Assembly: GCA_965199825.1 (NCBI GenBank)
Contig: OZ241329.1
Span: 2,208,001 to 2,272,000 of the forward strand
Direction of reading: 5' to 3'
DNA from: Bdellovibrionales bacterium
Lineage (GTDB): Bacteria > Bdellovibrionota > Bdellovibrionia > Bdellovibrionales > UBA1609
DNA length: 64,000 nt
This document shows, piece after piece, positions 43,437-64,000 of the stretch (position 1 is its first letter; every line of letters starts with the position of its first letter). Position numbers and translations under genes: made by a program. The notes beneath the pieces were generated by a model. It did no database searches, was not told the DNA's origin, and was given only the letters and a program-made list of their open reading frames with translations.

Positions 43437-43466
43437 AACTCCCCTGTCAGGGAACAGAGGGGTAGA

Positions 43467-44842: not shown

Positions 44843-44895
44843 ATTGAGATTTCATTTCAATTACACTCACACTTTTTTTCAGATGGAGTGTCGAG

Positions 44896-46727: not shown

Positions 46728-46747
46728 ACCTTTATCATGGAGTTTTT

Positions 46748-48197: not shown

Positions 48198-49028
48198 TTA
48201 GAAGTTTAGGGGGATTCTGTTGTTGAGTGGCTGCAGCGGCCGATTATTCTTCGAATACACCTGTCGAAATTGCAGGATTTGGGCCTTCGACATTTCAACA
48301 GGTGTGTTGAGCACATACCATCGTACACCTTCGGTGCATGGTGGAGTGGTCAAGCTTCCGGTGTACATGTAATGAGTCATATGATCAGGCAAAAGGCGCG
48401 AAGGATCAAACAGGGTGTTTGGTTTTTCAACCACCATTCCTTTTTGTTTTGGAAAATTGTCGAAGATATCGCGGATGGTTTGATTTTCTTTACCCACAAT
48501 CAGGATGATCGCCACCACAGCAATTTCGCCATTGTCAGATTTATGAAAGAACTGGGCTTCCATTGGGAGGGAGTTGCCCGAGAGGGTGTGCTCCGAGGAG
48601 GTTCGAAATTGAATATGTGTGAGCGAAAAATTTTGGCCATGAAGTTTTGCACTGCTTTGGCCGCTTGTGCCCACTTCAATAGTGTATCCGTTATCCATCA
48701 CCTTTAATGGCTCGGGACGATAGTTAAAAGAAATTTCGCCCCCACCTTTTGGTTTATGGAATTTCAAATCTACCGGAGATTGGCTTTTGCCGGTGCGGCA
48801 CAAACTAAATTCAGGTTTGATGTCTCCCCAATGTTCGGGCCCAGTATCGCCTTCGTAACTCCAAATTCGAGTGACGGGCGAAACTTTAAACTCGCTCTTT
48901 TGCACTTTTTCGACCACAGGCGTGGGTACCGGTGAAGATTCAACCGGAACAATCACAGGCTCTTTGGGGTCGGATGCACAAGAAACAATAAAAGAAAAAA
49001 CACCGAAAATAAGTAGTCGTTGGATCAT
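48198..49028 (-). CDS. Alpha-carbonic anhydrase-like lipoprotein lacking Zn ligands
   Basis: Lipobox IVSC; WSYEG.TGP.HWG, QSPVD, SEH, Y.GSLTTPPCTEGV.W, NNRPLQPLN; HxH/H sites read QFR and EAQ. Confidence 0.88.
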   Translation of the reverse strand: MIQRLLIFGVFSFIVSCASDPKEPVIVPVESSPVPTPVVEKVQKSEFKVSPVTRIWSYEGDTGPEHWGDIKPEFSLCRTGKSQSPVDLKFHKPKGGGEISFNYRPEPLKVMDNGYTIEVGTSGQSSAKLHGQNFSLTHIQFRTSSEHTLSGNSLPMEAQFFHKSDNGEIAVVAIILIVGKENQTIRDIFDNFPKQKGMVVEKPNTLFDPSRLLPDHMTHYMYTGSLTTPPCTEGVRWYVLNTPVEMSKAQILQFRQVYSKNNRPLQPLNNRIPLNF

Positions 49029-49049
49029 GGATGTACCTCGCTTCGGTTA

Positions 49050-50291
49050 TCAAATAATATGATAAGCCTTAAGTCCACGAAAGAGTGTCTCGGTCATAAC
49101 TTTCGTGACAACGATAGTCGGAATCGCAAGAAGCATCCCGGCAAAACCAAAAATGATGGCTCCTCCCATCACTCCAAGAATCACCATCAAGGGGTGAAGG
49201 TTGACGGTGCCTCCCAAAATCACGGGGGCGTAAAAAAAACTGTCGAGAAAATGGGTGACCGCTACAACAAGTGCGACCCCGATGAAAATTTGGTCTGGCA
49301 TCAAACCAGGAATGACAGGAGTCAAATCCTCGGCAATCAAGGCATACAAAAATCCAACGCCCAACCCAATCATTGGGCCCACAAATGGAATGACATTGGT
49401 GAGGCCAGCAAAAATTCCGATCAGTAAGGCAACCTTTAACGGAATTCCGATTAAGAAAAATCCAAGCGTAAATGTGATACTCACGAGCAGGCATTCGATC
49501 AATGTGCCGCGCAGATAATTGCCAATGGCCGAGTCCACTTCGTAAATTGTTGTGAGCATCAATTCAAAATATCGATTGGGCGCGAGGCTGACGAAGTAGC
49601 GTAGAATATGACGGTCATCAAAGAGCAAAAATAAAAAGATAATCGGCATCAACAGCCAAATGGATGCGAGATGAAGAGCGGTCATTAGGGTTGATTCTTG
49701 TTTTGTGGTGATGTCGACAGAAGCAAGCTCGCGCGTTTCATTTTTGATTTGGTTGGCCGAAAAGTATTTGAGATATTTGGCGCTCAAATCTGTTTTCGAT
49801 TTGCTAAAACTTAGAAATCTTGAGGACTCTTCTTTATCCAATGTCAGAATGCGATTTAAGGAATTTTTAAGCGGTTCGAGTTCTCGTCCAAAAAGTGAGT
49901 GTAGAAAATTACCTTCTGAGGAGCCGGATTTGAGGCCCATAAATTTGGCGTAGCGTTCATTGAGTTTGTACTGCAATCGGACTTTGAGCTCAAGATTGCC
50001 GCGATCGTCGGGAAGGCTTGCCTGTACTGCAAAAAATAAAATGAGAAAGCCTAAAGACATCGCAACCAATGCCGAGCACACACGAAATTTGTATGGCAAA
50101 AATGAAATCGCGTGAGAGCGGATCAACGGACGAAATAAGTAAGCGAGTAAAACGCCCAAAGTGCAGGGCAAAATAAGATCGCGCAGCGCCCACACCACAA
50201 AAACCAAGAGCGAGGCCAGCACAACGGCAAGTGCTGTATAAATAAAAAATGTATGATCCGATTTTTGTTTAGGCAATTTTTCGATGGTCAC
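49050..50291 (-). CDS. AI-2E family transporter
   Basis: LAYLFRP, YLRGTL, NVIPFVGP, P.ILG.TVNLHP, FGFAGMLLAIP. Confidence 0.88.
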   Translation of the reverse strand: MTIEKLPKQKSDHTFFIYTALAVVLASLLVFVVWALRDLILPCTLGVLLAYLFRPLIRSHAISFLPYKFRVCSALVAMSLGFLILFFAVQASLPDDRGNLELKVRLQYKLNERYAKFMGLKSGSSEGNFLHSLFGRELEPLKNSLNRILTLDKEESSRFLSFSKSKTDLSAKYLKYFSANQIKNETRELASVDITTKQESTLMTALHLASIWLLMPIIFLFLLFDDRHILRYFVSLAPNRYFELMLTTIYEVDSAIGNYLRGTLIECLLVSITFTLGFFLIGIPLKVALLIGIFAGLTNVIPFVGPMIGLGVGFLYALIAEDLTPVIPGLMPDQIFIGVALVVAVTHFLDSFFYAPVILGGTVNLHPLMVILGVMGGAIIFGFAGMLLAIPTIVVTKVMTETLFRGLKAYHII

Positions 50292-50799
50292 TTTGTGATT
50301 GTCCTAAGAGTAAGTTCGTTGCTTTTAATCTTTCGCCAATCACCAATGCGAGGGCCTTATAAACGTGGGCCGCAATTTCGGGTTGAGTTGGGATCAGCGA
50401 CAAAAGATCATTGCGAAACAAAGCAAAAGTCGAAGTGGTTTTGACCACGCGGGCGGAAGCTGAACGGACCGAATCGTCCAGCAGAGCAAGTTCTCCTAAA
50501 AAATCACCATCAGTTAAAGTGGCGATTTGGCCCGAGTTGCCTCTGTCGGTAAGCATCTCGATGCTAATCGTTCCGGTTTTTATAATAAACAAAGCAGCAG
50601 CGGGTTGACCCATTTCAAAAATATATTCGCCTTTTTGATAAGTTCTTTCGTGGAGGATGCGCGACATGACGAGAAGCTGTTTGTGATTGAGCATTTCAAA
50701 AAAAGGTAAGGATTTTAGAAATTGGATTTTTTCTTGTGTGGGCGATTGGATCAAGCGTCTTTTGACTCTTGTCCACATGATTGCGACTGGGGTTTTCAT
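50269..50799 (-). CDS. Cyclic nucleotide-binding domain protein (no HTH)
   Basis: LPFFE, IFEMGQP, FIIKTG, GDFLGELALLD..RSASA. Confidence 0.88.
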   Translation of the reverse strand: MKTPVAIMWTRVKRRLIQSPTQEKIQFLKSLPFFEMLNHKQLLVMSRILHERTYQKGEYIFEMGQPAAALFIIKTGTISIEMLTDRGNSGQIATLTDGDFLGELALLDDSVRSASARVVKTTSTFALFRNDLLSLIPTQPEIAAHVYKALALVIGERLKATNLLLGQSQSDHRKIA

Positions 50800-50807
50800 C
50801 TTAGATA

Positions 50808-50834
50808 AATCGGAAAATAAGACCCAAAGATTGA
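50808..50834 (-). promoter_or_regulatory. Putative FliA/sigma28-type promoter (probably leaderless transcript)
   Basis: TCAAT-N16-CCGATT ending 8 nt before ATG 50799. Confidence 0.5.
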
Positions 50835-50855
50835 TTGAGGAATCTAAAACTGGCC

Positions 50856-51740
50856 CTAACGATTTCGAAATAAGAGGTCGAGGCGTTCTTTATCAATAAG
50901 ACTTAAGCCTGTTTTTGAGGGCGCAATCACGTGTTGCTGATCTAAAGTCTCGAGGGTGCGCAAACCTTCGGCCTTTTGAAAGGCGGTTTCGGAATAGAGC
51001 ATGATCGAGTGGTAATCAAAACCAGTAGAATTTAAAACCTCAAGTAGCGGTGCCGGGACCATTTCAAATTGGGGTAAAAATTCGGGCAAAATATTTTCTT
51101 CGATGACCCTGACATAGCGATCACGATCTAATCTTGATTGTTCATGCGGAAATCCAAGCGCATGCATCACTTCATGGACCACCTGTTGCCATTGACAAAA
51201 ATCAGCAATCATAATGGCTTGGGGGCCACCGATGCGGCCCATATAACTGGCGCATAGATTTTGGCTTTTTTGAAAGACGAGAGAGTCTTCGGTGGGAGTT
51301 TCAATTGCACGAAAGCGAAGGCTCGAATGCATTTCGATATGGTGAAGGGCCTCGGTAATTCGGTCCGGCTGAAGAACATGCGAATCGATCGCGTACGGAA
51401 TCGTTGCGGTGGGCCACAATCGGGGCTCTTCAAATCGGGTGATGCCGCCATTGATTTCTTGAGAAGGTTTACCCAACACAACATCGCCAAAGGCCACCGC
51501 CACCCCTTCGATCACCTTGAAATGAACAACGGGTATATTTTGTTTTGTCACCGGCGCAAGGGTTGGTAGGCTTTGGGTCTGTTTGTTTTCAGAAATTGTT
51601 GGAACTGGAATTTGTTTTACCGGATGGTCGACAGTTGGCTTTGAAGGCGGACTCTGATTTTTTGGTTGCCGATTTTTAAACAAAAAATATCCGCAAATCA
51701 AAATACAAACAATCAGGGGCCAGTGACGAGAGATCATCAC
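50856..51740 (-). CDS. Astacin-family (M12A) metalloprotease
   Basis: LWP...IPY, C.SY.GR.GG.Q, HEVMHALGFPHEQSR.DRD, DYHSIMLY. Confidence 0.9.
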   Translation of the reverse strand: MMISRHWPLIVCILICGYFLFKNRQPKNQSPPSKPTVDHPVKQIPVPTISENKQTQSLPTLAPVTKQNIPVVHFKVIEGVAVAFGDVVLGKPSQEINGGITRFEEPRLWPTATIPYAIDSHVLQPDRITEALHHIEMHSSLRFRAIETPTEDSLVFQKSQNLCASYMGRIGGPQAIMIADFCQWQQVVHEVMHALGFPHEQSRLDRDRYVRVIEENILPEFLPQFEMVPAPLLEVLNSTGFDYHSIMLYSETAFQKAEGLRTLETLDQQHVIAPSKTGLSLIDKERLDLLFRNR

Positions 51741-51764
51741 AATGTTTTAAGCGAGGGATCTAAA

Positions 51765-52523
51765 TTGCACAAGATACCGGTTTTAATATTTTGCTACATT
51801 CGGGCTCTTTTTCAATTGTTGTGGCTTGTGTTTCACACCGTAATTGGCGGGTCGATTCTCATTGCCGAAACGTTTTTGATCAAAAATAGAAAGTTTGAAG
51901 ATGCAACCCTCAAGTTTTGGGGCCGGATGCAGCTGTGGCTCACAAACGTGCATGTCGAGGTTGAAAGCGATCAAGTTCCTAACGAAGGCTGTTTGTTTTT
52001 ATTTAATCATGCGAGCTACTCCGATATTTTTGTGCTTTATGGATATTTACCTAAACCTTTTCGATTTGGTGCAAAGATCGAACTTTTTTCGATACCCATT
52101 TTTGGCGCCACAATGAAGAGTGTTGGGGTTTTGCCCATTGTGCGTGATCAGCGAGAGGATGTTTTAAAAGTTTATAAAGAAGCCATCGCGCGTGTTCGAA
52201 ATGGCGAATGTTTTGGGCTTGCACCCGAGGGCACTCGGCAAGACGGCAAAAATTTAGGTAAATTTAAACTTGGGCCTTTTGTTTTTGCTCGCAATGCAAA
52301 TATGCCCATTGTTCCGGTGGTGATGACAAACACCTGGCGGGTTCAACCCAAGGGCTCACCCCTAATGAATGCCAATCATTTTAAAACGGTGATCAAACTC
52401 AAAACTTTAAAACCTATTTATCCAGAGGGGCGCTCGGAGTTTGAGTTAAGGGCAATGGCGTTTGAAGTGATGGATAAGGAATATCATCGATTATTGGAGT
52501 CATCGAATCCATCAATGGAATAA
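51765..52523 (+). CDS. plsC: 1-acyl-sn-glycerol-3-phosphate acyltransferase (start uncertain)
   Basis: NHASYSD, AK.ELF.IP.FG, PEGTR, FK.G, PIVPV. Confidence 0.85.
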   Translation: MHKIPVLIFCYIRALFQLLWLVFHTVIGGSILIAETFLIKNRKFEDATLKFWGRMQLWLTNVHVEVESDQVPNEGCLFLFNHASYSDIFVLYGYLPKPFRFGAKIELFSIPIFGATMKSVGVLPIVRDQREDVLKVYKEAIARVRNGECFGLAPEGTRQDGKNLGKFKLGPFVFARNANMPIVPVVMTNTWRVQPKGSPLMNANHFKTVIKLKTLKPIYPEGRSEFELRAMAFEVMDKEYHRLLESSNPSME

Positions 52524-53313
52524 TACGGTCGCGAATTAAAGCCTTAGTTTTTTCGAGATGCAGATAAAGGGTTTTTGCATCGAAGTTTCCATTTCTGTGA
52601 AATAAACCTTCAATCAAAACACGACGAATATCTGTTTGCTCTTTTTCGAGTCGGTTAAAGTTTTTGGCAATGCCCATATTTTTTTGGTGCAAAAAATCGG
52701 CGATGGCACTCTTAAAATCAGTATCCTCAGAAATCTGAAAAATTTCTTTTAGTGCTTGAGTGGTCAGCTGCAGCAAGATTCGGGTGTTGAAGTTCAGAGA
52801 ATCTAATCTTTCTGGCCGCTCCCTCTCGACAGTTTCAAAAACGGTCACAAGTTTTTGCCATTCCGAACTTGTGAGCAATGCATAGACATCAGGCTTTAAG
52901 AGGTTTGCATCTAATTTTCGAATACAGTTTTTATAGATATCCAAATTCATTTCGGCATCCCGCTCTTGATAGCAATGTTCTAATTGAAAGGTTGAAAACG
53001 CTCCTTTTTCGGGATCGAGGACTTCGATCAATTTGGCAAGCTCAGCAATGGCGCCTGGATTTATTTGCGATGTCAGATCAATTTGGAGGGCTAAAATATC
53101 TCCGACCAAATTCATCAAAATCGTATACTCCACTCGGCCTTTTCGGTCGGTTTCAATAAGCTTATTTTCGAGCAGAGATTTTGCGGTTTCTACAGTGTAG
53201 AGGGTCTCAAAGGCGGTGGTGCGGAGAAGCTCAGGCAAAAAATAGGAAGACTCGAGCGAAGTCACACAACTCGCTGACGACCAAAACGAAAATAAAATTT
53301 GAAGCACCAGCAC
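52414..53313 (-). CDS. Secreted hypothetical protein
   Basis: 299-aa ORF, short signal then SCVTSL; 3' end overlaps plsC. Confidence 0.6.
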   Translation of the reverse strand: MLVLQILFSFWSSASCVTSLESSYFLPELLRTTAFETLYTVETAKSLLENKLIETDRKGRVEYTILMNLVGDILALQIDLTSQINPGAIAELAKLIEVLDPEKGAFSTFQLEHCYQERDAEMNLDIYKNCIRKLDANLLKPDVYALLTSSEWQKLVTVFETVERERPERLDSLNFNTRILLQLTTQALKEIFQISEDTDFKSAIADFLHQKNMGIAKNFNRLEKEQTDIRRVLIEGLFHRNGNFDAKTLYLHLEKTKALIRDRIIPLMDSMTPIIDDIPYPSLQTPLPLTQTPSAPLDK

Positions 53314-53317
53314 GAAT

Positions 53318-54136
53318 TTATTCCTCTCTCAAAATTGGGATGAGCCACTCGGTTTTAAATTTTTTTATAAACAAAGGAACAAGTTCAATCAGTTCGTGAT
53401 GAAGCGAAGATGGGATCACATAATCGGTGTTGATATGAAGTTGGCTTGTATCAAACTGTGCATCTCGCAATCGATTGAAAACAAACTTCGCGCCCCACTC
53501 TTCATTTGTTAACATTTTGTTTGCGGCGGCGATCAGCACTTTGTTTTCGGTGATTTCAGAAATACCGGTTAATCCTTCGCTTAGCGATTCAATAATAGGG
53601 AGAAGAGAGTACACTGTTGTTGCAAAGTGATCCGCCATTGGCCTTGACCATGTTGAATTAAGAATGACATGAAATGGAATCCAATCGGAGGATTTAGTGC
53701 TCGACCAATTCTTCGGTGATTTTTCCCATTGAAACGTCAGGCTGGTTGAATTGATAAGTGCATCTAATTCTTCCAAAATATTTTGCGAATTATAATATTC
53801 TGGAAAATATTCGATCGGAGTCATTCCGGTGAGAGGATTCAGATCTTTTAAGCTGCCAGAAAGCCGCAGCGAGAGCTGATTCCAGTTTTGATTTGATGGG
53901 GTTAAATAAAGATTAGATAAACGCAACCCAACATCATAGATCCGAATGCACCGACTTGTACTTTGAACTTTTTCAATGGCCTCTTTTGCATGTTCCAACG
54001 TGTAGCACGCTCTCACGTAGCCTTGTCTTGCTATCACTTTTTGCACAGCCACCGACTGAAGGTCTGTGTGGCAATCAGCAAAAGCAATTACAAAAGTCAA
54101 AAACTTTATAAATATCAATGGTGCCCCCCGGCTCAT
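53318..54136 (-). CDS. Secreted hypothetical protein
   Basis: Signal ending AFA then DCHTDL. Confidence 0.6.
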   Translation of the reverse strand: MSRGAPLIFIKFLTFVIAFADCHTDLQSVAVQKVIARQGYVRACYTLEHAKEAIEKVQSTSRCIRIYDVGLRLSNLYLTPSNQNWNQLSLRLSGSLKDLNPLTGMTPIEYFPEYYNSQNILEELDALINSTSLTFQWEKSPKNWSSTKSSDWIPFHVILNSTWSRPMADHFATTVYSLLPIIESLSEGLTGISEITENKVLIAAANKMLTNEEWGAKFVFNRLRDAQFDTSQLHINTDYVIPSSLHHELIELVPLFIKKFKTEWLIPILREE

Positions 54137-54217
54137 CCAAACTCTAAAATAAAAAGAAGAGTTTTAGCAAACCTCATCTATTCATCTTATAAAAAGTTAA
54201 GTAGAGTAGAGTCTTCG

Positions 54218-55255
54218 ATGAAACAAGTTTTTATTATAGCGATCTGTATGGGCGTCAATGCGGTGCTTGCCGCGGTTGAAATGGCTTTTGTCACGGTGGC
54301 AAAGCCGCGACTGCGACAAATGGTCAAAGAAAATCATATCGAGGCCGAAAAGGTTTTGCGACTGCGCGAAAAGCCGGAGCGCACACTTTCGGTTTTGCAA
54401 ATCGGAATCACGTTGGTTGGATCGGTGGCGGCTGCGGTTGGTGGCGCTCTCGCTCAAGAGCGAATGACTCCATTCTTTATTGAACAGTTTGGTTTACTCC
54501 CTGCAGGAGCCGAGCTGATTGCGATCGTGTCGATTGTTTTGCCCATCACCTATATGAATGTGGTGGTGTGTGAGCTTGTGCCAAAGACTTTGGCTTTAAG
54601 AAATTCACTCAATATTATGCTCAAGTCGGCGTCTTATCTGATTTTGTTTGAAAAGATATTGAGCCCACTTGTCAGTGTGCTCGAGTTTTCGACCAAGAAA
54701 ATTTTAAAATATTTTTTTGTGGCAAAAGTTGCAGAAGGGGCTTCTGAAGAAACCGTGGCACTTGATTCCTTAAGCACCCAGGCTCGGCAATATGTTGTTA
54801 ATCTGGTGAATATGGAAACCAAACGGATCCGCGATATTTTGGTTCCATGGTCACAGGTGAATTCGGTGCGGTTTGATCAATCTATGGATGATGTAAGGTC
54901 GGTTGTGGTCACATCGGGCCACACGCGGCTGCCGGTTTTAAAAGACGATGTGGTGATTGGGATTCTCAACACCAAAGAATTTATGACTTTGGATCGAGTT
55001 GGTGAAACTCATTGGGAAAAGATTGTGAGACCCATGGTTAAAGTTTCCGAAGCCGATCCACTATTGAAAGTTTTAAGATTGATGCAAGAAAAAAGATCTC
55101 ATCTCGCGACCGTTTACACCCAAAATCGACGGCTTGGGGTGGTGACGATGGAAGATATTTTAGAAGAAGTGATCGGCGATGTTTTTGACGAAGATGACGA
55201 TGGAGCGCTCAAACGAGTGCTTGCCACAGCCGCTACATTTAAGAGCCTCAGATGA
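54218..55255 (+). CDS. CNNM/CBS hemolysin-family (HlyC/CorC) protein
   Basis: EMAFV, QIGIT, ELVPKTLA, GHTRLPV, VTMEDILEEVIGD. Confidence 0.9.
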   Translation: MKQVFIIAICMGVNAVLAAVEMAFVTVAKPRLRQMVKENHIEAEKVLRLREKPERTLSVLQIGITLVGSVAAAVGGALAQERMTPFFIEQFGLLPAGAELIAIVSIVLPITYMNVVVCELVPKTLALRNSLNIMLKSASYLILFEKILSPLVSVLEFSTKKILKYFFVAKVAEGASEETVALDSLSTQARQYVVNLVNMETKRIRDILVPWSQVNSVRFDQSMDDVRSVVVTSGHTRLPVLKDDVVIGILNTKEFMTLDRVGETHWEKIVRPMVKVSEADPLLKVLRLMQEKRSHLATVYTQNRRLGVVTMEDILEEVIGDVFDEDDDGALKRVLATAATFKSLR

Positions 55256-56079
55256 GTTATCAACTTTTAGACTCTGGTGATTTTGAAAAACTTGAAAAAG
55301 TAGGCCCCTACATTATTCGCCGTCCCGCAGCCCAAGCGGTGTGGCGAAAAACCGAATCGCATTGGCCCACCGCCGATGCGGTTTATCATCGCTACTCTGA
55401 AGGAAAAGGGGAATGGAAGACGGCGTCCTCGGTTCCTCAGTCATGGACGATCGAACTTGGAGATCTCAAATTGATCGCCAAGCTCACAAGTTTTGGGCAT
55501 CTCGGACTTTTTGCAGAACAACAAAAAAATTGGTCGCTGATCCAAAACCGTATTGAACAAACTAAAAATAACCGGGTTCCTCTTATACTTAATTTGTTTG
55601 CTTATACCGGGGGTTCAAGTCTTGTGGCAGGCCGAGCCGGAGCCGAAGTTGTCCATGTGGATGCTTCGAAAGGTTCGGTCGATTGGGCCAAACGCAATTT
55701 TGAGGCAAATGGAATTGAGTCGACCACGCGCTATATGGTTGATGACGTCATGGCTTTTGTTGAACGCGAAGTCAGGCGTGGACGTGTGTACGATGGTATC
55801 ATTCTCGATCCTCCAACCTATGGCCGTGGACCTCAAAAAGAAATTTGGAAGATCGAAGAGCATCTGTTGCCACTTTTGGATATGTGCAAAAAACTTCTTG
55901 AGCAAAGCTCAGGTTTCGTTTTGCTCAGTTGTCATTCGCAAGGCTATACGCCCATTGCCCTCAAACATCTGTTAGCAAGCAGCATTGGCGCCCATACCGT
56001 TGAGGCTGAAGAGATGGTCATTATGGACCGCTTCGGAAAAGCCCTGCCCTCTGGAGCCTCGGCTTTTATTACGTATTAA
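55252..56079 (+). CDS. Class I SAM methyltransferase (RlmI/RlmK-like)
   Basis: Y.LLDSG..EKLE, LNLFAYTGG, HVDAS, ILDPPTYGRG. Confidence 0.85.
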   Translation: MSYQLLDSGDFEKLEKVGPYIIRRPAAQAVWRKTESHWPTADAVYHRYSEGKGEWKTASSVPQSWTIELGDLKLIAKLTSFGHLGLFAEQQKNWSLIQNRIEQTKNNRVPLILNLFAYTGGSSLVAGRAGAEVVHVDASKGSVDWAKRNFEANGIESTTRYMVDDVMAFVEREVRRGRVYDGIILDPPTYGRGPQKEIWKIEEHLLPLLDMCKKLLEQSSGFVLLSCHSQGYTPIALKHLLASSIGAHTVEAEEMVIMDRFGKALPSGASAFITY

Positions 56080-56701
56080 GAATTTTATCTAAATATTTTC
56101 TTGTGAGCGAGCCTTGAGGCATCAAGCGCTCAATGGTGCTTGAAGCCGATTTTAGTTTTTGGGCTTCACTCCAGAGATCTTCGTAAATCAAGGACGTTGC
56201 TCCCACCGCAAGCGAAGGAAATGCTCCATCTTCCACTTCACCAAATCCTACCGCCAAAAACTCATTGAATAAAAACTTAAGGGCCTTTGAATACGTGGGC
56301 TCATTGAGTTTTCCCTGAAGACCGATTTCGAGTTTTAATTCTTTTGTCGAAAGCGGAGAATTTTGTTTTAAGATTTCGAGCATCTCTTTGGATTCCAAAA
56401 TAAATTTGGATTTACGAGCGAGCGGCACTGTTTTGATGAGAGCGGTAAACAGTTCGCGCGAAAAAAAAGTGGCTCGTCCTTGATACCATTTGGAATACAC
56501 AACCTCGCGGCACTTTGAGAGAGTCTTCATCAACTGCCACATTTCGGATACCCGGTTGTCGCTGCCCGAATCCCAGGTCCAGCGCATTTTTGAGCGTGGG
56601 TAAAACTCGGACCACAAAGATTTTGGCTCGGGCCGGTTATTGATCGGAAAAACAAGCAATAAACCATTATTATTTATTTTATCAATTGCTTTTTTGTACA
56701 T
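56069..56701 (-). CDS. Hypothetical protein, possible winged-helix/AlkZ-related
   Basis: 210-aa ORF in operon; PKSLW, VVYSKW.QG..TF, ILKQNSPLSTKELK. Confidence 0.55.
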   Translation of the reverse strand: MYKKAIDKINNNGLLLVFPINNRPEPKSLWSEFYPRSKMRWTWDSGSDNRVSEMWQLMKTLSKCREVVYSKWYQGRATFFSRELFTALIKTVPLARKSKFILESKEMLEILKQNSPLSTKELKLEIGLQGKLNEPTYSKALKFLFNEFLAVGFGEVEDGAFPSLAVGATSLIYEDLWSEAQKLKSASSTIERLMPQGSLTRKYLDKILNT

Positions 56702-56702
56702 G

Positions 56703-57353
56703 TCACTTGCCTGATAAGATTGGGAGAGCTTCCTTTATACCTTCGATCACAAATTGGATCGCCACCGCAGCAAGAATAATCCCTAATAGCCGCGACATCA
56801 CATTCATCCCGATATGACCCAAAAAATTGGCGAGTCTTCCGGCTTCGCGCAATATTAAAAAACAAAGTCCAACCGTGCACACAAGTGCCAAATAAAGTGC
56901 GGCATGATGGGGAAGTTCTGAGGCCTTTTCTGAAAGCAAAAAAACCGAAACAATCGCACCCGGGCCAGCGAGTAAAGGGATGCCTAGGGGAAATACCGCA
57001 ATATCCTCTTTGACCGAGCCCTCTTCGGCCTCTTCACTTGTTGATTTGGTTCGCGAGGTGCGGGCGTTTAACATATCCAGGGCGACGATAAACAAAAGTG
57101 TTCCACCAGCGATTCGAAGTGCCGGTATGGTCACACCAAAAAATCGAAATACAAAGGAGCCCAAAATACTTGCGCCCAATAAAACACTAAAGGCCACGAT
57201 GCATGCGCGCTCAGCCGTAAGGATTCGTCGGGCTCGATCATAGTCGCTGGTCATCGCCAAAAAAGGCCCAAGCGCTCCGAGCGGATTCATAATTGTAAAG
57301 AGAGTCGAAAAACAGATCACAAAGAATGCATGAAACGAATTGAGTGTTGCCAT
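56703..57353 (-). CDS. MarC family membrane protein
   Basis: MNPLG, IAGG.LLF, PLGIPLLAGPG, RLLG.IL. Confidence 0.9.
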   Translation of the reverse strand: MATLNSFHAFFVICFSTLFTIMNPLGALGPFLAMTSDYDRARRILTAERACIVAFSVLLGASILGSFVFRFFGVTIPALRIAGGTLLFIVALDMLNARTSRTKSTSEEAEEGSVKEDIAVFPLGIPLLAGPGAIVSVFLLSEKASELPHHAALYLALVCTVGLCFLILREAGRLANFLGHIGMNVMSRLLGIILAAVAIQFVIEGIKEALPILSGK

Positions 57354-58385
57354 TTACCTCTTTTGCGCCACGACCCACTTGCTTGATAAACCGTAGCCTT
57401 CTTCGAATTTTGTAAAGCCAGCTTCGCTCATCAAACTTTGAAGGGGGTGCTGGATATAATTTTTGTAGAAGGGCTCATGAAAATCAATAGGAAACTGATA
57501 AAGGGCTTTATCCAGCTCTGGAACATCCCCCAACTGGACCGAATCAACAATCGCAATTAAACCTTTTGGCTTTAAAACTCGAAATGCTTCTTTTAATACT
57601 TTTTTGCGTTCTTGGAGTGGGAGTTCATGAAATAAAAAAACATGAAACACCAAATCAAAACTTTTTGGTGCAAGCTCAGTATGAGCCGCATCTCTTTTTA
57701 AAAAGTTAATCTGAGGAAATTCGACCAAATGCTTTTGGGCTTCTTTTAGATAAGGAAAGCTTAAATCCACACAGGTGATTTCGCTATTTGGAAAACTCAA
57801 CGCAAAAGCCTTAGTCGCATTTCCGGTTCCTGAAGCCATCTCTAACACTTTGAGTTTTTGATTTTTCTTAAATCCACGATCCAATAGCGGCTTGATAAAA
57901 ATGCGTCTCATTGTATCGCCAAGTCCGCGAAACAAAATCTCAACCTGATGCTCGTAAATCTTTGCCGAATTGTCGCTTAAGTAGCCATCGGTTTGATAAT
58001 GAAAATTGCGGCGATAATATTCGGGCACATCTTCAAGAAACACTTTTGATTTTTCAGAAAAATCGTTGTGGCGTAATTTTAATTTCCGTGAATTGAGCAG
58101 CACCACATCGGCAAGCACTTTGGCATAACTTAAAAGATGGGTGGAGACATTTCTTGGAACCAAAACTTGAACCGGATAAACACCATCAACAATATTTGCG
58201 GCATCTTGATCGATTAGTTTTTTTGCAGCCGCAAGTGCGGCATCGGTGGTTTCTTTGCTGATTTTAAATTTAGGATCGCTGTGGAACACCTGCTGTAAAA
58301 AGAGAAATGGAATTCCCTCGACCGTGTAAACCGCACTTCGCACATAGGCGAGGGCGCGAACAAATTGCTTCCTTAAAGATTTCAT
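57354..58385 (-). CDS. Class I SAM methyltransferase
   Basis: YY.RNFHYQTDGYLS, LEMASGTG, FLFHELP, FHEPFY. Confidence 0.85.
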   Translation of the reverse strand: MKSLRKQFVRALAYVRSAVYTVEGIPFLFLQQVFHSDPKFKISKETTDAALAAAKKLIDQDAANIVDGVYPVQVLVPRNVSTHLLSYAKVLADVVLLNSRKLKLRHNDFSEKSKVFLEDVPEYYRRNFHYQTDGYLSDNSAKIYEHQVEILFRGLGDTMRRIFIKPLLDRGFKKNQKLKVLEMASGTGNATKAFALSFPNSEITCVDLSFPYLKEAQKHLVEFPQINFLKRDAAHTELAPKSFDLVFHVFLFHELPLQERKKVLKEAFRVLKPKGLIAIVDSVQLGDVPELDKALYQFPIDFHEPFYKNYIQHPLQSLMSEAGFTKFEEGYGLSSKWVVAQKR

Positions 58386-58445
58386 CTTTCCTCCACAGCT
58401 AATATCAGCTAAAAGCGAGTTTATCTTTTTTTGAAAGGTGTGTAT

Positions 58446-58925
58446 ATGATCGCAGCGAATAAAGTGGTTGGCTTAATCTACACGTTAAAAGACGATGCTG
58501 GAAAGCTCCTGGATGAAGCCCCAAAGAATGATCTGTTCTTTTATCTTCATGGTGAAGGGCAAATTGTACCTGGTCTCGAAGATGCGCTCGAAGGTTTAAA
58601 ACCTGGCGATAAAAAAGCCATCACAGTGACACCCGACCAAGGCTATGGCCAATTGAACGAGGAGATGAAGGTGGTGGTGAGCCGCGATCAATTTCCGAAA
58701 GAAGCCGATGTTCAGCCCGGAATGCAATTTTTAGCCGAGATGGGTAAGGGCGGAAAGCACCCTTTTACCGTGATCGATGTCAAAGATGGCCAAGTTCACT
58801 TGGATGGCAATCATCCACTTGCGGGTCAGACATTGCATTTTGATGTTGAGGTGGTCGAAGTTCGTGACGCCACTAAAGAAGAGTTGGAACATGGCCATGC
58901 CCATGGTCCCCACTCGCATCATTAA
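58446..58925 (+). CDS. slyD: FKBP-type PPIase/metallochaperone SlyD
   Basis: YLHG.GQIVPGLE, GYG, DGNHPLAG..L.F.V, His-rich tail. Confidence 0.93.
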   Translation: MIAANKVVGLIYTLKDDAGKLLDEAPKNDLFFYLHGEGQIVPGLEDALEGLKPGDKKAITVTPDQGYGQLNEEMKVVVSRDQFPKEADVQPGMQFLAEMGKGGKHPFTVIDVKDGQVHLDGNHPLAGQTLHFDVEVVEVRDATKEELEHGHAHGPHSHH

Positions 58926-60031
58926 TCGAGAAAAAACGAGCTGCGCTGGTATTCGACCCGCAACATTTTTGAAGCTTCTTGAAGAACTGCCGCAGCCGGA
59001 ACCGCAATCAGCAATCCTAAAAATCCAAACATATTTCCACCCACGATCAACGCCAATATCGTGGTCAGGGGATGAAGTCCCACTTTGTGGCCCACCAAAC
59101 GTGGAGTCACAACAAAGCTTTCGAGGGCTTGACCAAGAGCAAAGATCATCAAAACTGAAAACACATGTGACCATGATGAAAAACCCGAAAGCTCAATCAC
59201 CATTGCGGTCAATAAACCTGTGCCGTAACCCACATAAGGCACAATCACCAATAGACCCGTGCAGACGCCCACGATAAATCCAAATTTAAGGTGAACCACC
59301 AAAAGCCCAATTCCATAAAACGCGGCTAATATCAAAGCGGCTAAACTTTGCCCCAACAGATATCCACTTAAGATCTCATGCACACGTCTCGAGAGCGCTC
59401 GTAAACGAGGCCGAAAGCGCGGAGGCAACAAGTCATTTAGGCCAGTGCCGATCGACTCATAACTATGAACCAAGTAAGCAAAAAACAAAGGGATCAGAGC
59501 TAAATTTAAAACCATTAAAACAATCTGTAAAAGACTCGAAAAGGTATTGCGCAAAATGGGCGAGGCCATATTGAAAATATCTAGCGAGGAGCCGGGCAAA
59601 CTTTGCTTTAAGAGTTCGCGCACATCATCGCGGTGAATGGGCAGAGTCACATCATATTTTTGTGCAATCTCTTCGAGATGGGCAAACAGAGTGTCGATCT
59701 GTGCAGGCAGGGCATAGAGTAAATCTTTAAGCTCTCGAATCAGCATGGGGATTACAAAAATAAAAAATAAAGTGATCAATGTGAGGGCGACGAAAAACAC
59801 CAGCAAAACCGAAATCACTCGGGGAAGTCCCCAGCTTTCAAGCTTCAAGGTCATCGGTCGCAAAAGATAAGCTAAAATAAAACTGAGTAAAAGTGGTCGA
59901 AAGGCATCGCCGAGGCCATAGCCCAGCATAAACAAAAGTGCTACGCCAAACAGAGTAAACATGAAAATGGTGTTGGTCTTAGTCGAGCGAGTTTTTTGGA
60001 GCGGCTGAGTGATCATGTCTTGATGTGCCAC
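58922..60031 (-). CDS. AI-2E family transporter
   Basis: LAYLLRP, GYLLGQ, VPYVG, TPRLVG.KVGLHP, FGFLGLLIAVP. Confidence 0.9.
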   Translation of the reverse strand: MAHQDMITQPLQKTRSTKTNTIFMFTLFGVALLFMLGYGLGDAFRPLLLSFILAYLLRPMTLKLESWGLPRVISVLLVFFVALTLITLFFIFVIPMLIRELKDLLYALPAQIDTLFAHLEEIAQKYDVTLPIHRDDVRELLKQSLPGSSLDIFNMASPILRNTFSSLLQIVLMVLNLALIPLFFAYLVHSYESIGTGLNDLLPPRFRPRLRALSRRVHEILSGYLLGQSLAALILAAFYGIGLLVVHLKFGFIVGVCTGLLVIVPYVGYGTGLLTAMVIELSGFSSWSHVFSVLMIFALGQALESFVVTPRLVGHKVGLHPLTTILALIVGGNMFGFLGLLIAVPAAAVLQEASKMLRVEYQRSSFFLD

Positions 60032-60154
60032 ACAGTTTGTACAGGCGCAATGAGTTGCAGGTCCTAATCTCTAAAAATCTGCGCGCGGGTTTTGTTTTGA
60101 GCCGCGCACAGCTTTTTTAAGATTTTAATTTTTGAGAAGTTTAACTAAATACTT

Positions 60155-60493
60155 TTAGTAAGTTTTAACTGGCCAGCAACGGTTTGTTGCTTGGTAGTAT
60201 CCATATGTCCAAGCGGGATTTGCGCCAGCTTGAAGATTTGCTCCAACACACAAGCTAAGTGGTAAGCACTGATTGAAATCACAAGAATATGCTGTTCCTG
60301 CCCAGCACTGGGTTTGTTGTACGCAGCTCACTGTCCCTGTAGTATTTCCAGTTGACGACTGGTTACAGGTGTAAACGCCGTTCACTGTTTGGCAACCTTG
60401 AAAACCGTTGCTGTTGTTGTTGCCGCTTCCGCCGCAAGCACTCAAGACATAAGCTGCAGAAAGTAAAAGAGCTGTTTGTAGAATCGTTTTCAT
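60155..60493 (-). CDS. Small Cys-rich lipoprotein
   Basis: Lipobox LSAC; multiple Cys; GAGGGG RBS. Confidence 0.8.
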   Translation of the reverse strand: MKTILQTALLLSAAYVLSACGGSGNNNSNGFQGCQTVNGVYTCNQSSTGNTTGTVSCVQQTQCWAGTAYSCDFNQCLPLSLCVGANLQAGANPAWTYGYYQATNRCWPVKTY

Positions 60494-60535
60494 ATTTTTC
60501 CCCTCGTTTTTTTAAAACCTTATGCAGTCTTCATT

Positions 60536-60550
60536 ACAACGAGAGTGCCA
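60536..60550 (-). promoter_or_regulatory. Putative sigma54 promoter
   Basis: TGGCACTCTCGTTGT (TGGCAC-N5-TTGT) 43 nt upstream of start. Confidence 0.55.
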
Positions 60551-60727
60551 GCTGCGATTTTGTAAAGTGGCCGGTACACGTGTCCAAAGTGTAGACGTTT
60601 AAAAACATCGAGCGGTGAGGGGATGAAAAAAGATTTTTAGCGATCTGCGCGCTTGAGCCGACATCTGTCATTTCAGTGACCCAAAAGTGTCACTGAGCGC
60701 AATCAGAGTGTCTCATCTTGAAACGGT

Positions 60728-61414
60728 TTAGAGCTTAGTGAGCGGGGCAGTGAGCCAAGCACAAAAATCGGGTTGGGCCGCGATCAGCTCATCGTTTTGA
60801 CGTCGCGAAATGGAATGGTCCCGTTCTTTATTGAGCAAACCTAAAACGTTCGCTAATTGAAATTTTGCGTCTCGATGATGATATCCAAAGTTGATCAAAT
60901 TGACCAACGCAAGCTTGTTGTTCGGCTGAAAAATGAGATTTCTGACCGATTCAACCCTTAGAAGGGTGTTTTGAGGGAAAACTTGAAGGATAAGGCGATC
61001 TTGGTGTGCTGAATTTGGGGTAAACACTCCGGGAACCAAATTCGTCTCGATCCAAATGGAATGACTTAAAATCGCAAGTTCTTTGAGCGACCTTACCGGG
61101 CGCGCCACCTCTATTAAATAATACAGCGGACTCATGTCGGTTTGGGGGTTGTGATCATAGGCCAATGCGAATTGATAGGCTAAAACCGCTTCGTAAAATT
61201 GGCGATTTTCTTTAAAGATATTTCCCATTTCGATGGCTGCGAGAACGATTCGTCGGGATTCAGTAAGGAGAACCGAAGTCTTTTTGGCCAACGACTCGCT
61301 GTAGGAGGATTTGGCGATGTCGTGTTGTGCGGTTTGAATCACTTCTTGGTACATGGCAATTTTTGAAACAGATCCAAAAACGGTCGAACCAAAAAATATT
61401 AAAATCAACAACAT
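60728..61414 (-). CDS. Secreted hypothetical protein with TPR-like helix pair
   Basis: Signal peptide; MGNIFKENRQFYEAVLAYQFAL; ends FCAWLTAPLTKL. Confidence 0.6.
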   Translation of the reverse strand: MLLILIFFGSTVFGSVSKIAMYQEVIQTAQHDIAKSSYSESLAKKTSVLLTESRRIVLAAIEMGNIFKENRQFYEAVLAYQFALAYDHNPQTDMSPLYYLIEVARPVRSLKELAILSHSIWIETNLVPGVFTPNSAHQDRLILQVFPQNTLLRVESVRNLIFQPNNKLALVNLINFGYHHRDAKFQLANVLGLLNKERDHSISRRQNDELIAAQPDFCAWLTAPLTKL

Positions 61415-61453
61415 GGATAAATTGTGACGAGCCTTTTATCCATGTTCAACAAA

Positions 61454-62080
61454 TTATTTTTCGAGTTGGGCGTATTCGCTTTCCATAAATAAACTGGCGT
61501 TGCCACCTTTGGCGCGGATCCCATCAATAACCGTTTTGGCTTGGGCTGAACGTTTGTTGGCAATCAACATTTTAACATAGCTTTGGGTTACGGTTACTTG
61601 GAGGGCATCGACCTTTGAGGCGAGCACGCGCTCGTAATATTGCGAGGCTTGATCGATCATTCCGAGCTGTCCTAACACCTTGGCATAATCATAAGAAGCA
61701 TCCACACTCAATCCGCCAGAGCGAAAATAACTACCAAAAGAATTTGCCGACTCACGAAATTTTTGACGTTGCATCTGGATTTTACCGAGTTGGGTTAAAG
61801 CCTCAACTTGTGTTGTGGCTTCACTCTGAAGAGCACTCTCGGCACAGTCCAAGTTTTTTCTTTCAAGACATATTTTTGCCAGCTCATCGGCATCATGGGC
61901 ACTGAGCGAGGACATCATGCTTTTTATTTGCAAAGGTATGATAGACAAAAAATGACTGTCCCATTTGATTGCCTGGATAAAACAGAGAACCACCACTAAA
62001 GAAAGTGTCACGCTGACTTTTGAAAATCTCTTAAAAATTTCTCTTTCGGCCTGACGTTCATAATTAACAAACATAACCAC
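61454..62080 (-). CDS. Membrane-anchored TPR protein
   Basis: AAGGAG RBS; TM helix; LGKIQMQRQKFRESA, YAKVLGQLG..DQA..YYERVL. Confidence 0.75.
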   Translation of the reverse strand: MVMFVNYERQAEREIFKRFSKVSVTLSLVVVLCFIQAIKWDSHFLSIIPLQIKSMMSSLSAHDADELAKICLERKNLDCAESALQSEATTQVEALTQLGKIQMQRQKFRESANSFGSYFRSGGLSVDASYDYAKVLGQLGMIDQASQYYERVLASKVDALQVTVTQSYVKMLIANKRSAQAKTVIDGIRAKGGNASLFMESEYAQLEK

Positions 62081-62194
62081 TCTCCTTGTGAGTTCTTATT
62101 TAATGATAGAGCAACCTAGACGCCACCTTGCCTCGCTTTTGTTTTGGTTTTAAGCTTTTACAGTTTGAAAAAAACTCTTTTGAGGTGACAATTT

Positions 62195-63328
62195 TTGAGA
62201 GCGTCGTTGGTTTTAATCCTATTGTTTTTGGTTCATTGTGCAAGGTCTCCTTTAAAAAATGCGGATCAAGCCCTCAAACTTGTCACCAAAAAGATCACCC
62301 TAAAAGATGATCAAAACTTAGATTTGCTTAAAACCGCAATTGAGCAATCGGCCTTAGCTCTCGAAAAGAACGCGGGTGTGCTCAAATTTGGCTCGATGAC
62401 CATCTCCAAAGAGGTGTATGCGGCCCAGCTTAAAAATCTCTTAAAAGTGCCAAACGATCAGCTTGTCAGCGAAATTCAGAACCATTTTGATTTCTATGAG
62501 GTCTATGGTGAACGAAGGTTGGGCGAGGTCTTTGTGACCTCTTATTTTGAGCCGGTACTTGAGGCCTCAGTCAAACCCTCAAAGCGGCTCTCACAAGCCC
62601 TCTATCAGGCGCCAAAGGATTTGATCTCGATTGATTCCAAATCCTTTCATGAGCGATTCTCTTATTTTGATGATCAATTTAAACTGTCATTTTTAAAAGG
62701 GCGTTTGCTTCAGCCCGAGATGCGGCTTGTGCCCTTTTACAATCGAAAAGAGATCGATCAGGATTTAAATCTCAAAAACCAAAATCTTGAGATTGGCTAT
62801 GTGGATCCGGTGGATGCCTTTACGGTTCAAATTCAAGGGTCGGGCACCTTGATCTTTCAAAATCAAAAAAAAATCCGCATCGGTTACGCCAATCAAAATG
62901 GCTATCCCTATGTGGCCATCGGCAAATTTTTGCTCGACCGCATTCCGCTTGAAAAGATGACTCTGCAAACAATCGAAGCCGCACTTCACGACATGACAAA
63001 CCAAGAGCGCCAAGCGATCATGAACAAAAATCCATCTTATGTTTTTTTTAAAATTATGGATGGTGATCCCAAAACATTTTTTGGAATACCTGCGGTCGAG
63101 GGGCGAACGATCGCAACCGATCAACGCTATTTTCCAAAGGGCGCATTGGCTTTTTTGGATTTTCCGGCAAACGAAATACCATCTCGTCTGGTGATCGATG
63201 CCGACACGGGCGGTGCGATTAAGGGTGCGGGGCGTGTGGATCTTTTTGCAGGTCGCGGTGTTGAATCCAAAAAATTCGCAGGCCAAATTAAAAATCGGGG
63301 GCGACTCTACTATCTTGTCCCAAAATAA
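62195..63328 (+). CDS. mltA: Membrane-bound lytic murein transglycosylase A
   Basis: Lipobox-like LVHC; TSYFEP, IQGSG, NPSYVFF, DTGGAIKG..RVDLF.G.G. Confidence 0.92.
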   Translation: MRASLVLILLFLVHCARSPLKNADQALKLVTKKITLKDDQNLDLLKTAIEQSALALEKNAGVLKFGSMTISKEVYAAQLKNLLKVPNDQLVSEIQNHFDFYEVYGERRLGEVFVTSYFEPVLEASVKPSKRLSQALYQAPKDLISIDSKSFHERFSYFDDQFKLSFLKGRLLQPEMRLVPFYNRKEIDQDLNLKNQNLEIGYVDPVDAFTVQIQGSGTLIFQNQKKIRIGYANQNGYPYVAIGKFLLDRIPLEKMTLQTIEAALHDMTNQERQAIMNKNPSYVFFKIMDGDPKTFFGIPAVEGRTIATDQRYFPKGALAFLDFPANEIPSRLVIDADTGGAIKGAGRVDLFAGRGVESKKFAGQIKNRGRLYYLVPK

Positions 63329-63412
63329 AAGGGACAGCTCAGTCCTTATCCATAAAGACTGAGCTGCGGGGGTAGAGTGGGAGAGGGGGTAGATGCCGTC
63401 CATGACATCTGC
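63322..63412 (-). ncRNA. Candidate small RNA with two AUGGA-loop hairpins (Csr/Rsm-sponge-like)
   Basis: Hairpins AGAUGUC-AUGGAC-GGCAUCU and CAGCUCAGUCUUU-AUGGAU-AAGGACUGAGCUG, U-rich tail, upstream sigma54 motif. Confidence 0.55.
63335..63366. terminator. Stem-loop after mltA; probable terminator of the minus-strand sRNA, possibly bidirectional
   Basis: CAGCTCAGTC...GACTGAGCTG; U-rich tract on minus strand. Confidence 0.6.
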
Positions 63413-63423
63413 TAACCTATAGA

Positions 63424-63438
63424 GCAAGCGATGTGCCT
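63424..63438 (-). promoter_or_regulatory. sigma54 -24/-12 promoter
   Basis: AGGCACATCGCTTGC (GG-N10-GC); predicted +1 near 63412. Confidence 0.6.
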
Positions 63439-63648
63439 CAATGTTCGTTGAAAGTTTCAAAGACAATTTTTGTCGCTCAGCTGTACGGATTTCATTCAAT
63501 AAGCAACTGCGTGCTCAAGAATATTTGATCGCCAATTCCAAATGAAAAAATTTTGTTTCGAGGCTTGGGCGTTGGATTAAAAAAAATCCGATTCTGCCGC
63601 CCTTTGTCGGCATTTGACGCAAAGATCGTCACTCTCTAGGGTATGCCG

Positions 63649-64000
63649 ATGCAAACAGTTTTAACCGGGGTCAAACCCACAGGTCAGCCCCATATCGGAA
63701 ATTACTTAGGTGCGATCAAACCCGCCCTGTCATTTCAAAGCACCACACATACTTTTTTGTTTATTGCCGACTACCACTCACTCACCGCTGCAACCCAACC
63801 CAAGGAGCTCAATGCTTGGGTGTATGAGTTGGCGGCCACGTGGATTGCTTGTGGTCTTGATCCCGAGCAAACGGTGTTTTATCGCCAAAGCGATATCCCT
63901 GAAAATTTTGAGCTCTATTGGGTTTTAAGTTGCCTTTCATCTAAGGGCTTAATGAACCGCGCCCACGCATACAAAGCCAAGGTCCAAGAAAATGTTGAGG
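63649..64000 (+). CDS. trpS: Tryptophanyl-tRNA synthetase (5' part, runs off window; absent from ORF track)
   Basis: MQTVLTGVKPTGQPHIGNYLGAI...FIADYHSLT...FYRQSDIPE. Confidence 0.95.
   Translation, partial: MQTVLTGVKPTGQPHIGNYLGAIKPALSFQSTTHTFLFIADYHSLTAATQPKELNAWVYELAATWIACGLDPEQTVFYRQSDIPENFELYWVLSCLSSKGLMNRAHAYKAKVQENVE

Follow-up and report, generated by a model that had tools for sequence, protein, structure and literature searches.

Among the described bacterial regulatory RNAs, a few resemble the element examined here, an unannotated promoter-to-terminator unit on the minus strand between mltA and trpS of a Bdellovibrionales bacterium (GenBank assembly GCA_965199825.1). The DNA analysed, hereafter the window, is a stretch of 64,000 nucleotides (nt) of contig OZ241329.1 (positions 2,208,001 to 2,272,000, forward strand); coordinates without a prefix are those of this 64-kb window, and G000 denotes the whole genome (2.84 Mb, 43.8% G+C). 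In the Vibrionaceae, Qrr1-5 are short trans-acting RNAs made with sigma-54 under an enhancer-binding protein (PMC10162802), LuxO. The present unit would yield a small RNA (sRNA) of this general kind; however, it has no Rfam match, a C-rich putative seed takes the place of the Qrr seed, and it exists in a single copy. Pxr of Myxococcus xanthus is likewise about 100 nt long, with several predicted stem-loops and an apparent sigma-54 promoter (PMC5568312; PMC5684412), and its host is a predatory bacterium once classed as a deltaproteobacterium (PMC5568312). Unlike the case of Pxr, the nearest sigma-54 activator gene is about 57 kb away from the present locus, and no sequence likeness between the two RNAs was found. 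McaS of Escherichia coli and SR1 of Bacillus subtilis are base-pairing sRNAs with few GGA sites that engage CsrA (PMC7652899; PMC6546359). The present RNA differs from both in its promoter type, shares no homology with them and would meet a CsrA that is partnered with FliW; any engagement of CsrA is here hypothetical. CJnc230 (FlmE) of Campylobacter jejuni is an RpoN-dependent sRNA of the flagellar hierarchy that represses target mRNAs, but it is processed from the flgE mRNA (bioRxiv 10.1101/2023.04.21.537696). The present RNA, in contrast, would stand alone, far from flagellar genes, and its only flagellar link is given by the fliW and flagellin-leader likenesses described below.

Little is in print on the regulatory RNAs of Bdellovibrio-like predators. 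For B. bacteriovorus, eight attack-phase sRNAs have been listed, with no mechanism and no link to sigma-54 or CsrA (PMC3627812). Our literature searches found no paper linking Bdellovibrio, RpoN and sRNAs. The reading that we favour, and to which we give about an even chance of being right, is that the unit encodes a lineage-specific, trans-acting sigma-54 sRNA of about 90 nt, predicted from its sequence to pair a C/U-rich linker with G-rich ribosome-binding sites. If real, this RNA would add to the evidence for several fast-evolving sigma-54 C-rich RNAs in these bacteria, and it is a small, concrete object for tests, with one promoter, one seed and two loops.

A sigma-54-type promoter and an intrinsic terminator delimit a short unit

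The unit between mltA and trpS is well formed and statistically non-trivial, and runs on the minus strand from a sigma-54-type promoter to a terminator. The promoter, AGGCACATCGCTTGCTC (63438-63422), has the form AGGCAC-N5-TTGCT, with its GG at 63437-63436 and its GC at 63425-63424. The two elements are spaced by 10 nt, as in sigma-54 promoters, and transcription would therefore be expected to start near 63412, a position derived from promoter geometry and lying 12 nt 3' of the C in the GC element. Along the minus strand, AGGCACATCGCTTGCTC and 9 further bases are followed by GCAGAUGUCAUGGACGGCAUCU-ACCCCCUCUCCCACUCUACCCCC-GCAGCUCAGUCUUUAUGGAUAAGGACUGAGCUGU-CCCUUUUAUUUU. Hairpin 1, AGAUGUC-AUGGAC-GGCAUCU (63410-63391), consists of 7 base pairs (bp), one of them U-G, closed by a hexaloop with GGA at 63401-63399; it was found by RNAfold in both the minimum free energy (MFE) and the centroid structures. 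Both structures leave unpaired the 23 nt that follow, the C/U-rich linker ACCCCCUCUCCCACUCUACCCCC (63390-63368), a putative seed. Hairpin 2, the terminator stem (63367-63334), was folded by RNAfold as 15 bp, two of them G-U pairs, around the tetraloop UGGA (63352-63349). The U tract UUUUAUUUU (63330-63322) overlaps the stop codon TAA of mltA (63326-63328 on the plus strand), the A within it being the complement of the first base of that codon. Three GGA occur in the 91 nt, two in loops and one within the stem of hairpin 2.

Most of this anatomy had been anticipated in the original prediction, a reading of the window made from the sequence alone. The GG-N10-GC promoter with its start near 63412, the first hairpin with its AUGGAC loop, the single-stranded linker and the 3' end that meets the mltA stop codon were all recovered on the minus strand, and the second hairpin, given there as 13 bp with loop AUGGAU, is the one that RNAfold extends to 15 bp, with the top A-U open.

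The minus strand of 63412-63322 folds at -31.0 kcal/mol, compared with -17.7 +/- 2.9 for shuffled sequences (z-score -4.63; 0 of 200 shuffles as good), whereas the plus strand folds less well (z -2.37; 5 of 200 as good). As also predicted, the G-U pairs favour the minus strand, since they turn into C-A mismatches on the opposite one: hairpin 2 has two mismatches on the plus strand and is followed there by GGGGGUAGAG, with no U tract. When 62800-64000 was scanned with a terminator consensus, hairpin 2 and its U tract emerged as the sole site, on the minus strand, although one site is not above the count from shuffles in the same scan (mean 2.0). The unit has in this 15-bp stem and UUUUAUUUU its own same-strand intrinsic terminator, and this terminator has no other client, because trpS, the closest gene in the upstream direction, is encoded on the opposite strand and no minus-strand gene lies upstream.

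The expectation that no credible open reading frame (ORF) would be found held. A 244-residue minus-strand ORF was rejected because it runs antisense through mltA, and the transcript itself contains a frame of 20 codons (AUG 63408-63406, stop 63348-63346; peptide MSWTASTPSPTLPPQLSLYG) with a 4-nt leader and no Shine-Dalgarno sequence. No family of Rfam 15, including the Qrr and Csr/Rsm families, gave a match overlapping the locus at E-values up to 10, which argues that this is not a known element; a T-box or other trpS leader was rejected for the same lack of an Rfam match.

The promoter belongs to a recurrent class of sites

We counted the strict sigma-54 motif GGCAC-N5-TTGC over the whole genome, with the reversed pattern as a control and with intergenic status taken from a crude gene map. 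There are 21 sites, compared with 13.6 expected by composition and 7 for the reversed control, and 11 of the 21, this promoter among them, are intergenic versus 0 of the 7 controls. Moreover, three strict sites have one of the 486 strong terminators of the genome 30-160 nt downstream, where 0.24 would be expected: the present locus, with its terminator 92 nt downstream, C1:1893634 and C1:68972. The last of these (G000:C1:68972, minus strand) has its terminator 85 nt downstream; it shows no C-richness and, on the crude gene map, falls within an ORF.

The promoter, written aGGCAC-ATCGC-TTGCT, fits TGGCAC-N5-TTGCW at 10 of 11 scored positions and agrees with the extended consensus of the clade, TTGCTCTATAGG. 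In its extended form, GGCACATCNCTTGCTCTATAGGT, and with up to 3 mismatches allowed, it was found in 28 of 300 genomes of the order, versus a single match for the reversed control. About 9 of these 28 sites drive short non-coding C-rich RNAs, and the other 19 precede ORFs or are in coding sequence. The strict-site counts, the intergenic bias, the excess of terminators and the recurrence in the order place this promoter in a recurrent, functional-looking class.

Both rpoN and csrA, on which the original prediction depended, are encoded in the genome (Sigma54_DBD, 218.5 bits, and 91 bits, respectively). Sigma-54 activators are represented by 16 Sigma54_activat matches, 10 of them above 198 bits. 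The only potential activator site seen upstream of the promoter is an imperfect palindrome close to it (63440-63468; 14-nt arms, 79% complementary, core TTGAAA-C-TTTCAA).

Other sigma-54 C-rich RNAs occur in the genome and in the clade

The strict site at C1:1893634 drives a second short sigma-54 RNA, of about 55 nt, which is also intergenic (L067:745-835, minus strand, equal to G000:C1:~1893545-1893634). It reads TGGCACTTTGCTTGCT...ACCCCUUAGCGGCCUGGCCCCCUCAACUUACCCUCCCAGGUCGC-U7 behind a promoter of the TGGCAC-N5-TTGCT class. The body of this RNA is 77-90% identical in relatives of the family and order (25 of 61 genomes including its own, at E up to 0.05), and the sigma-54 motif, the C runs and the T run were in register in 20 of the 26 loci examined. 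It resembles the present RNA in its promoter class, its shortness, its intergenic position, its own terminator and its exposed C runs, in which CCCCCUC is common to it and to the linker. It differs in the placement of its C runs, which occupy the 5' end and the loop of the terminator, and in having neither a 5' hairpin nor GGA loops; it is also conserved across family and order, whereas the present RNA was found only in this genome. No homology between the two (the ~55-nt RNA taken as AUCCCCCCUUGGCGRCCUGG...CCAGGUCGC-U run) was detected by blastn within the genome, nor at locus L068 by a covariance model, R1, built from the single sequence of the present RNA and its structure. On the loci of the other sigma-54 RNAs, R1 aligned mainly the promoter. 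A gene resembling N-acetylmuramoyl-alanine amidases follows the ~55-nt RNA on the same strand in G000.

The roughly 9 C-rich RNAs behind the extended promoter comprise three copies of the ~55-nt RNA, three RNAs of about 130 nt from one genus, two members of a ~135-nt family and one RNA in genome G001. The ~130-nt RNA (L005, L113, L114), whose genus belongs to a sister family, has a long terminal hairpin with AUCUCCCCCCC in its loop, and its promoter is identical to the present one at 22 of 23 positions. The ~135-nt RNA (L141-L149, L117, L126) is structured and conserved, with the pattern ..CCGGCUCGCACCACAUUCGUGGAGUCC..ACCUACCACCGCCAGG..GGGAGC..GCUCCCC.., and in several genera of the family it follows GGCCC/GGTAC-N5-TTGC motifs; a blastn search of G000 gave no copy of it. 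The occurrence of CUCUCCCACU both in the present RNA and in L117 was dismissed, as in L117 it lies within a stem of this different family.

Two further RNAs share the build of the present one. The RNA of G001 (L157:~1400-1518, minus strand; z -4.25) combines a sigma-54 promoter and a 5' hairpin with the linker AUCCACCCUCCCCACACCAUCC and a terminator, and the longest frame noted in it has only 7 codons; blastn returned no relatives of it in 108 genomes of the family. The RNA of G010 (L162:613-~715, plus strand) is built in the same way and is one of 17 GGCAY-N5-TTGCTNTA sites in three genomes. Neither has GGA in its loops, their neighbours differ and they show no sequence likeness. They are analogues of the present RNA, their homology to it being unproven.

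Predicted targets of the linker and proposed action

We scanned the translation-initiation regions of the 2801 genes of the crude map for sites able to pair with the linker, using shuffled linkers as controls. The best short-window duplex (-22.7 kcal/mol) is formed with GGGGUAGAGUG (43459-43469, plus strand), all 11 nt of which complement linker nt CACUCUACCCC. This sequence is located at the ribosome-binding site of a gene for a lipoprotein-like protein of 371 residues (ATG at 43470) that matches no Pfam family. This site is not statistically supported, shuffled linkers giving equally good ones.

The second candidate is fliW. Its ribosome site, AGAGGGGG, is exactly complementary to CCCCCUCU of the linker (-17.3 kcal/mol, rank 49 of 2801). 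Across the order the fliW site is poly-G, with GGGGG in 21 of 30 loci and GGGG in 27 of 30 (L171-L200; G000:C1:1571775-1571798). Elsewhere GGGGG ribosome sites are found at 81 of 2801 G000 genes (2.9%), and at none of 28 csrA sites in the same loci. Sequence comparison thus marks the fliW poly-G site as a candidate conserved target for the C-rich RNAs of the clade, which would give these conserved RNAs their first testable target hypothesis. For the present linker, the sites of fliW and of the gene at 43470 are leads, not findings. A GGGGCAUCCU-like motif often stands about 25 nt upstream of the fliW ribosome site. Sigma-54-type promoters precede a flgF/G-like rod gene and fliL, both of which have GGGGG ribosome sites.

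In the mechanism that we propose, sigma-54 RNA polymerase would transcribe the minus strand from 63412 to about 63324 under the control of some enhancer-binding protein, and the RNA would then accumulate. Hairpin 1 would protect the 5' end, whereas hairpin 2 would end transcription and protect the 3' end. The linker would serve as the seed and pair with G-rich ribosome-binding sites, likely silencing the genes concerned; candidate targets are the gene that starts at window position 43470 and fliW, at its poly-G ribosome site. The present RNA would be a species-specific example, found only in this genome, of a type of RNA that seems common in these bacteria.

Observations that weigh against a trans-acting sRNA

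Several observations speak against this proposal, and the absence of evidence from conservation or covariation is its main weakness. The genus has this single genome in the collection searched. With blastn, 60 relatives yielded only chance matches of 14-23 nt, the best of them to other sigma-54 promoters; the own genome yielded the RNA itself and chance matches of 14-17 nt, with no second copy. R1 found no orthologue over 100 relatives. Its four weak matches (E 0.09-0.29) were rejected, three being in coding-like sequence and one a sigma-54 promoter before an ORF. A pattern scan of metagenomes and protein-anchored scans of metagenome and genome contigs returned nothing. The covariation among homologs that the original prediction had called for was therefore not to be had, since no orthologue turned up in any collection searched. 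Gene order around the locus points the same way. MltA proteins of relatives are at most 49% identical, and mltA is followed by trpS in 12 of 29 mltA loci of relatives; in none of these 12 does the spacer hold a sigma-54 RNA. The spacers are just 30, 30, 63 and 85 nt long in four of the loci and about 165-200 nt in two, and those of the rest, 580-1070 nt, hold unrelated minus-strand genes. For the analogues in G001 and G010, homology to the present RNA is not demonstrable.

The promoter and the linker have weaknesses of their own. The strict motif is not rare, as the count expected by composition makes plain, and position -26 is A instead of T. No activator gene is nearby, the distance to the closest being that given above, and no enhancer motif was found in common with 11 other sigma-54-type promoters of the genome, the shared words being 9-10-mers at chance level. 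The search for linker targets, which the original prediction had proposed and which we ran as complement and duplex scans, gave no enrichment over shuffled linkers: 8-mers of the linker complement 26 genes versus 39 +/- 11, 9-mers 8 versus 9.0 and 10-mers 1 versus 2.1, and the duplex-energy scan was likewise no better. Finally, no RNA run containing this stretch was found among public sequencing runs. Over 20 kb, the reads obtained from three poly-A RNA runs were no more than partial and unlike; the organism was not seen in them, so that they provide no test.

CsrA, FliW and the flagellin leaders

The csrA gene of this genome stands in the order flgL-csrA-fliW (FliW 124 bits). FliW is the known antagonist in csrA-fliW systems, and the occurrence of fliW is anti-correlated with that of the BarA-UvrY homologs, which Csr sRNA transcription requires (PMC7652899). 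The CsrA consensus obtained by in-vitro ligand selection (SELEX) is RUACARGGAUGU, with the hexaloop as the commonest form and at most 4 contiguous pairs in most hairpins (PMC7652899). The csrA leader of the order comes near this consensus, reading CUUUGACYAGGAUGUUGAAGGAG in most of 28 loci. It is almost invariant across the order and is followed by 7-8 nt and the AUG (L171-L200; L001:1461-1500). Judged from sequence, its two GGA, one of them over the Shine-Dalgarno, look like CsrA autoregulation. This leader and the poly-G Shine-Dalgarno of fliW may together be of greater consequence than the RNA.

Two of the five flagellin leaders (G000:C1:587700-587822 and 594280-594379; L203) have a GGA-loop hairpin (AGAUAUCACGGACUGAUAUCU; CUUAUUAAGGAUGAUAAG) and an AAGGAGG Shine-Dalgarno. 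Flagellin mRNAs under CsrA control are known to have such a pair of sites, a GGA-loop hairpin and a second GGA in the Shine-Dalgarno. Hairpin 1 of the present RNA (AGAUGUCAUGGACGGCAUCU) agrees at 12 of 14 positions with the hairpin in the fliC1 leader (AGAUAUCACGGACUGAUAUCU) over its 5' arm and loop, and one change in the stem, from A-U to G-C, is compensatory. In 20000 trials with random windows of 113 nt from the genome, 106 reached the score of this alignment, five leaders having been tried.

Csr sponges typically carry 5 or more GGA in loops or single strands, and the present RNA, with its two loop GGA, does not have the number of a CsrB/RsmZ-type sponge. The original prediction had seen a dual-function sRNA of about 90 nt, acting as a minimal sponge or as an RNA chaperoned by CsrA; such a dual function would work as in McaS and SR1. 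Its strand-specific unit of promoter, hairpins, linker and terminator has stood; its CsrA part, despite the presence of csrA, found no support, though no refutation either, from a FliW-partnered csrA, two loop GGA and GGA-less analogues. That CsrA binds the RNA we consider rather doubtful. A bolder version, in which the sigma-54 sRNA joins the CsrA-FliW switch that times flagellin, CCCCCUCU covering the fliW site and the two A-N-GGA loops, one of them a near copy of a flagellin-leader hairpin, binding a CsrA dimer, strikes us as improbable; if true, no RNA partner of a FliW-type CsrA system would have been found before this one.

Alternative explanations

The same RNA could have its main role with CsrA, its two A-N-GGA loops, 50 nt apart, binding one dimer either to titrate it or to recruit it as a pairing helper, possibly in a CsrA-FliW-flagellin node. 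This explanation overlaps the one we favour, as the RNA may have a dual function, and we judge it unlikely. Besides the presence of csrA, it draws on the loops themselves, both AUGGA and fitting A(N)GGA, with the commonest SELEX form, the hexaloop, in hairpin 1 (PMC7652899). The likely CsrA sites of the organism, in the csrA leader and in two of the five flagellin leaders, are similar; hairpin 1 resembles the fliC1 hairpin, and the linker complements the conserved poly-G site of fliW. Precedents exist as well: McaS and GadY bind CsrA (PMC7652899), and CsrA promotes the pairing of SR1 with ahrC in B. subtilis (PMC6546359). However, where csrA is partnered with fliW, as here, the known antagonist is a protein (PMC7652899), and C. 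jejuni is described as being without antagonising sRNAs (PMC4894983). Sponges have many sites and this RNA two in loops. Its hairpin 2 has 15 bp around a 4-nt loop and is very stable, at odds with the short stems of most SELEX hairpins (PMC7652899), and the base before GGA is U, in place of the purine seen in the SELEX consensus and in the csrA leader of the clade. The analogues of G001 and G010 are devoid of GGA loops. As for the two likenesses, that to the flagellin hairpin is post hoc, at about 0.5% per leader with five leaders tried, and the fliW match is one of the 26 8-mer matches, at the rank given above. More radically, there may be no sRNA at all, the sigma-54 match being due to chance and hairpin 2 being a 3' stabiliser of mltA, a leaky terminator or a relic of inserted DNA. 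With 13.6 strict sites expected and 21 found, a fair share of them must indeed be chance occurrences. Conservation, RNA evidence, an enhancer site and target enrichment are all wanting, and the mltA-trpS spacer varies among relatives. Yet the match is intergenic, where the reversed controls give 0, and it is followed at 92 nt by a strong same-strand terminator, one of three such cases, another of which is a conserved RNA. On the plus strand, moreover, the hairpin has its two mismatches and no U tract; the promoter fits the clade consensus TTGCTCTATAGG, and the C-rich single strand repeats a theme of the other sigma-54 RNAs of the clade. We hold the absence of any sRNA to be unlikely, given that the site is intergenic, that its terminator is strand-specific and that its promoter is typical of the clade.

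The unit might also act in cis. A transcript reading through from mltA into trpS would carry a perfect complement of the RNA, and convergent sigma-54 transcription, the resulting duplex or both could lead to the cleavage or silencing of this transcript. On the plus strand mltA is not followed by a terminator, the two genes, 30-85 nt apart in four of the 12 loci of relatives, are often close enough there for co-transcription, and the 3' end of the RNA overlaps the mltA stop codon. Nonetheless we think this improbable, since TTGACG-17-TAGGGT (read from the sequence itself and not scored by the consensus scan) is a plausible promoter for trpS alone, a cis-antisense RNA would have no need of a long exposed C-rich seed, and the similar RNAs of this genome and of relatives occupy unrelated contexts. 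It is very improbable that the unit is a tiny mRNA for the 20-residue peptide MSWTASTPSPTLPPQLSLYG. The frame is open within the transcript, but it has a 4-nt leader and no Shine-Dalgarno sequence, the stem of hairpin 1 buries its AUG, and its stop lies within the terminator stem; the analogous RNA of G001 has only its 7-codon frame. The pairing of the C/U linker with G-rich ribosome-binding sites remains the explanation that we favour.

Flanking genes and sequence support for the window

The convergent neighbour, mltA (62195..63328, plus strand), is an ORF with MltA and 3D domains. The divergent neighbour is trpS, the 5' part of which lies in the window (63643..63999, plus strand) and encodes a class I tRNA synthetase of the W/Y type. 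Of the public DNA runs, X2 carries the identical sequence and X1 contains all the sampled words. A third run, X3, compared over window positions 44001-64000, is a low-depth sample of a closely related strain, which shows a few differences in every few hundred bases, and leaves the RNA gene uncovered.

The possible trpS promoter on the plus strand ends at 63642, right at the first ATG, and from this position the mRNA would have no leader or almost none. Across the trpS start codon, the arms of a 7-nt inverted repeat (63607-63613 / 63643-63649) could pair.

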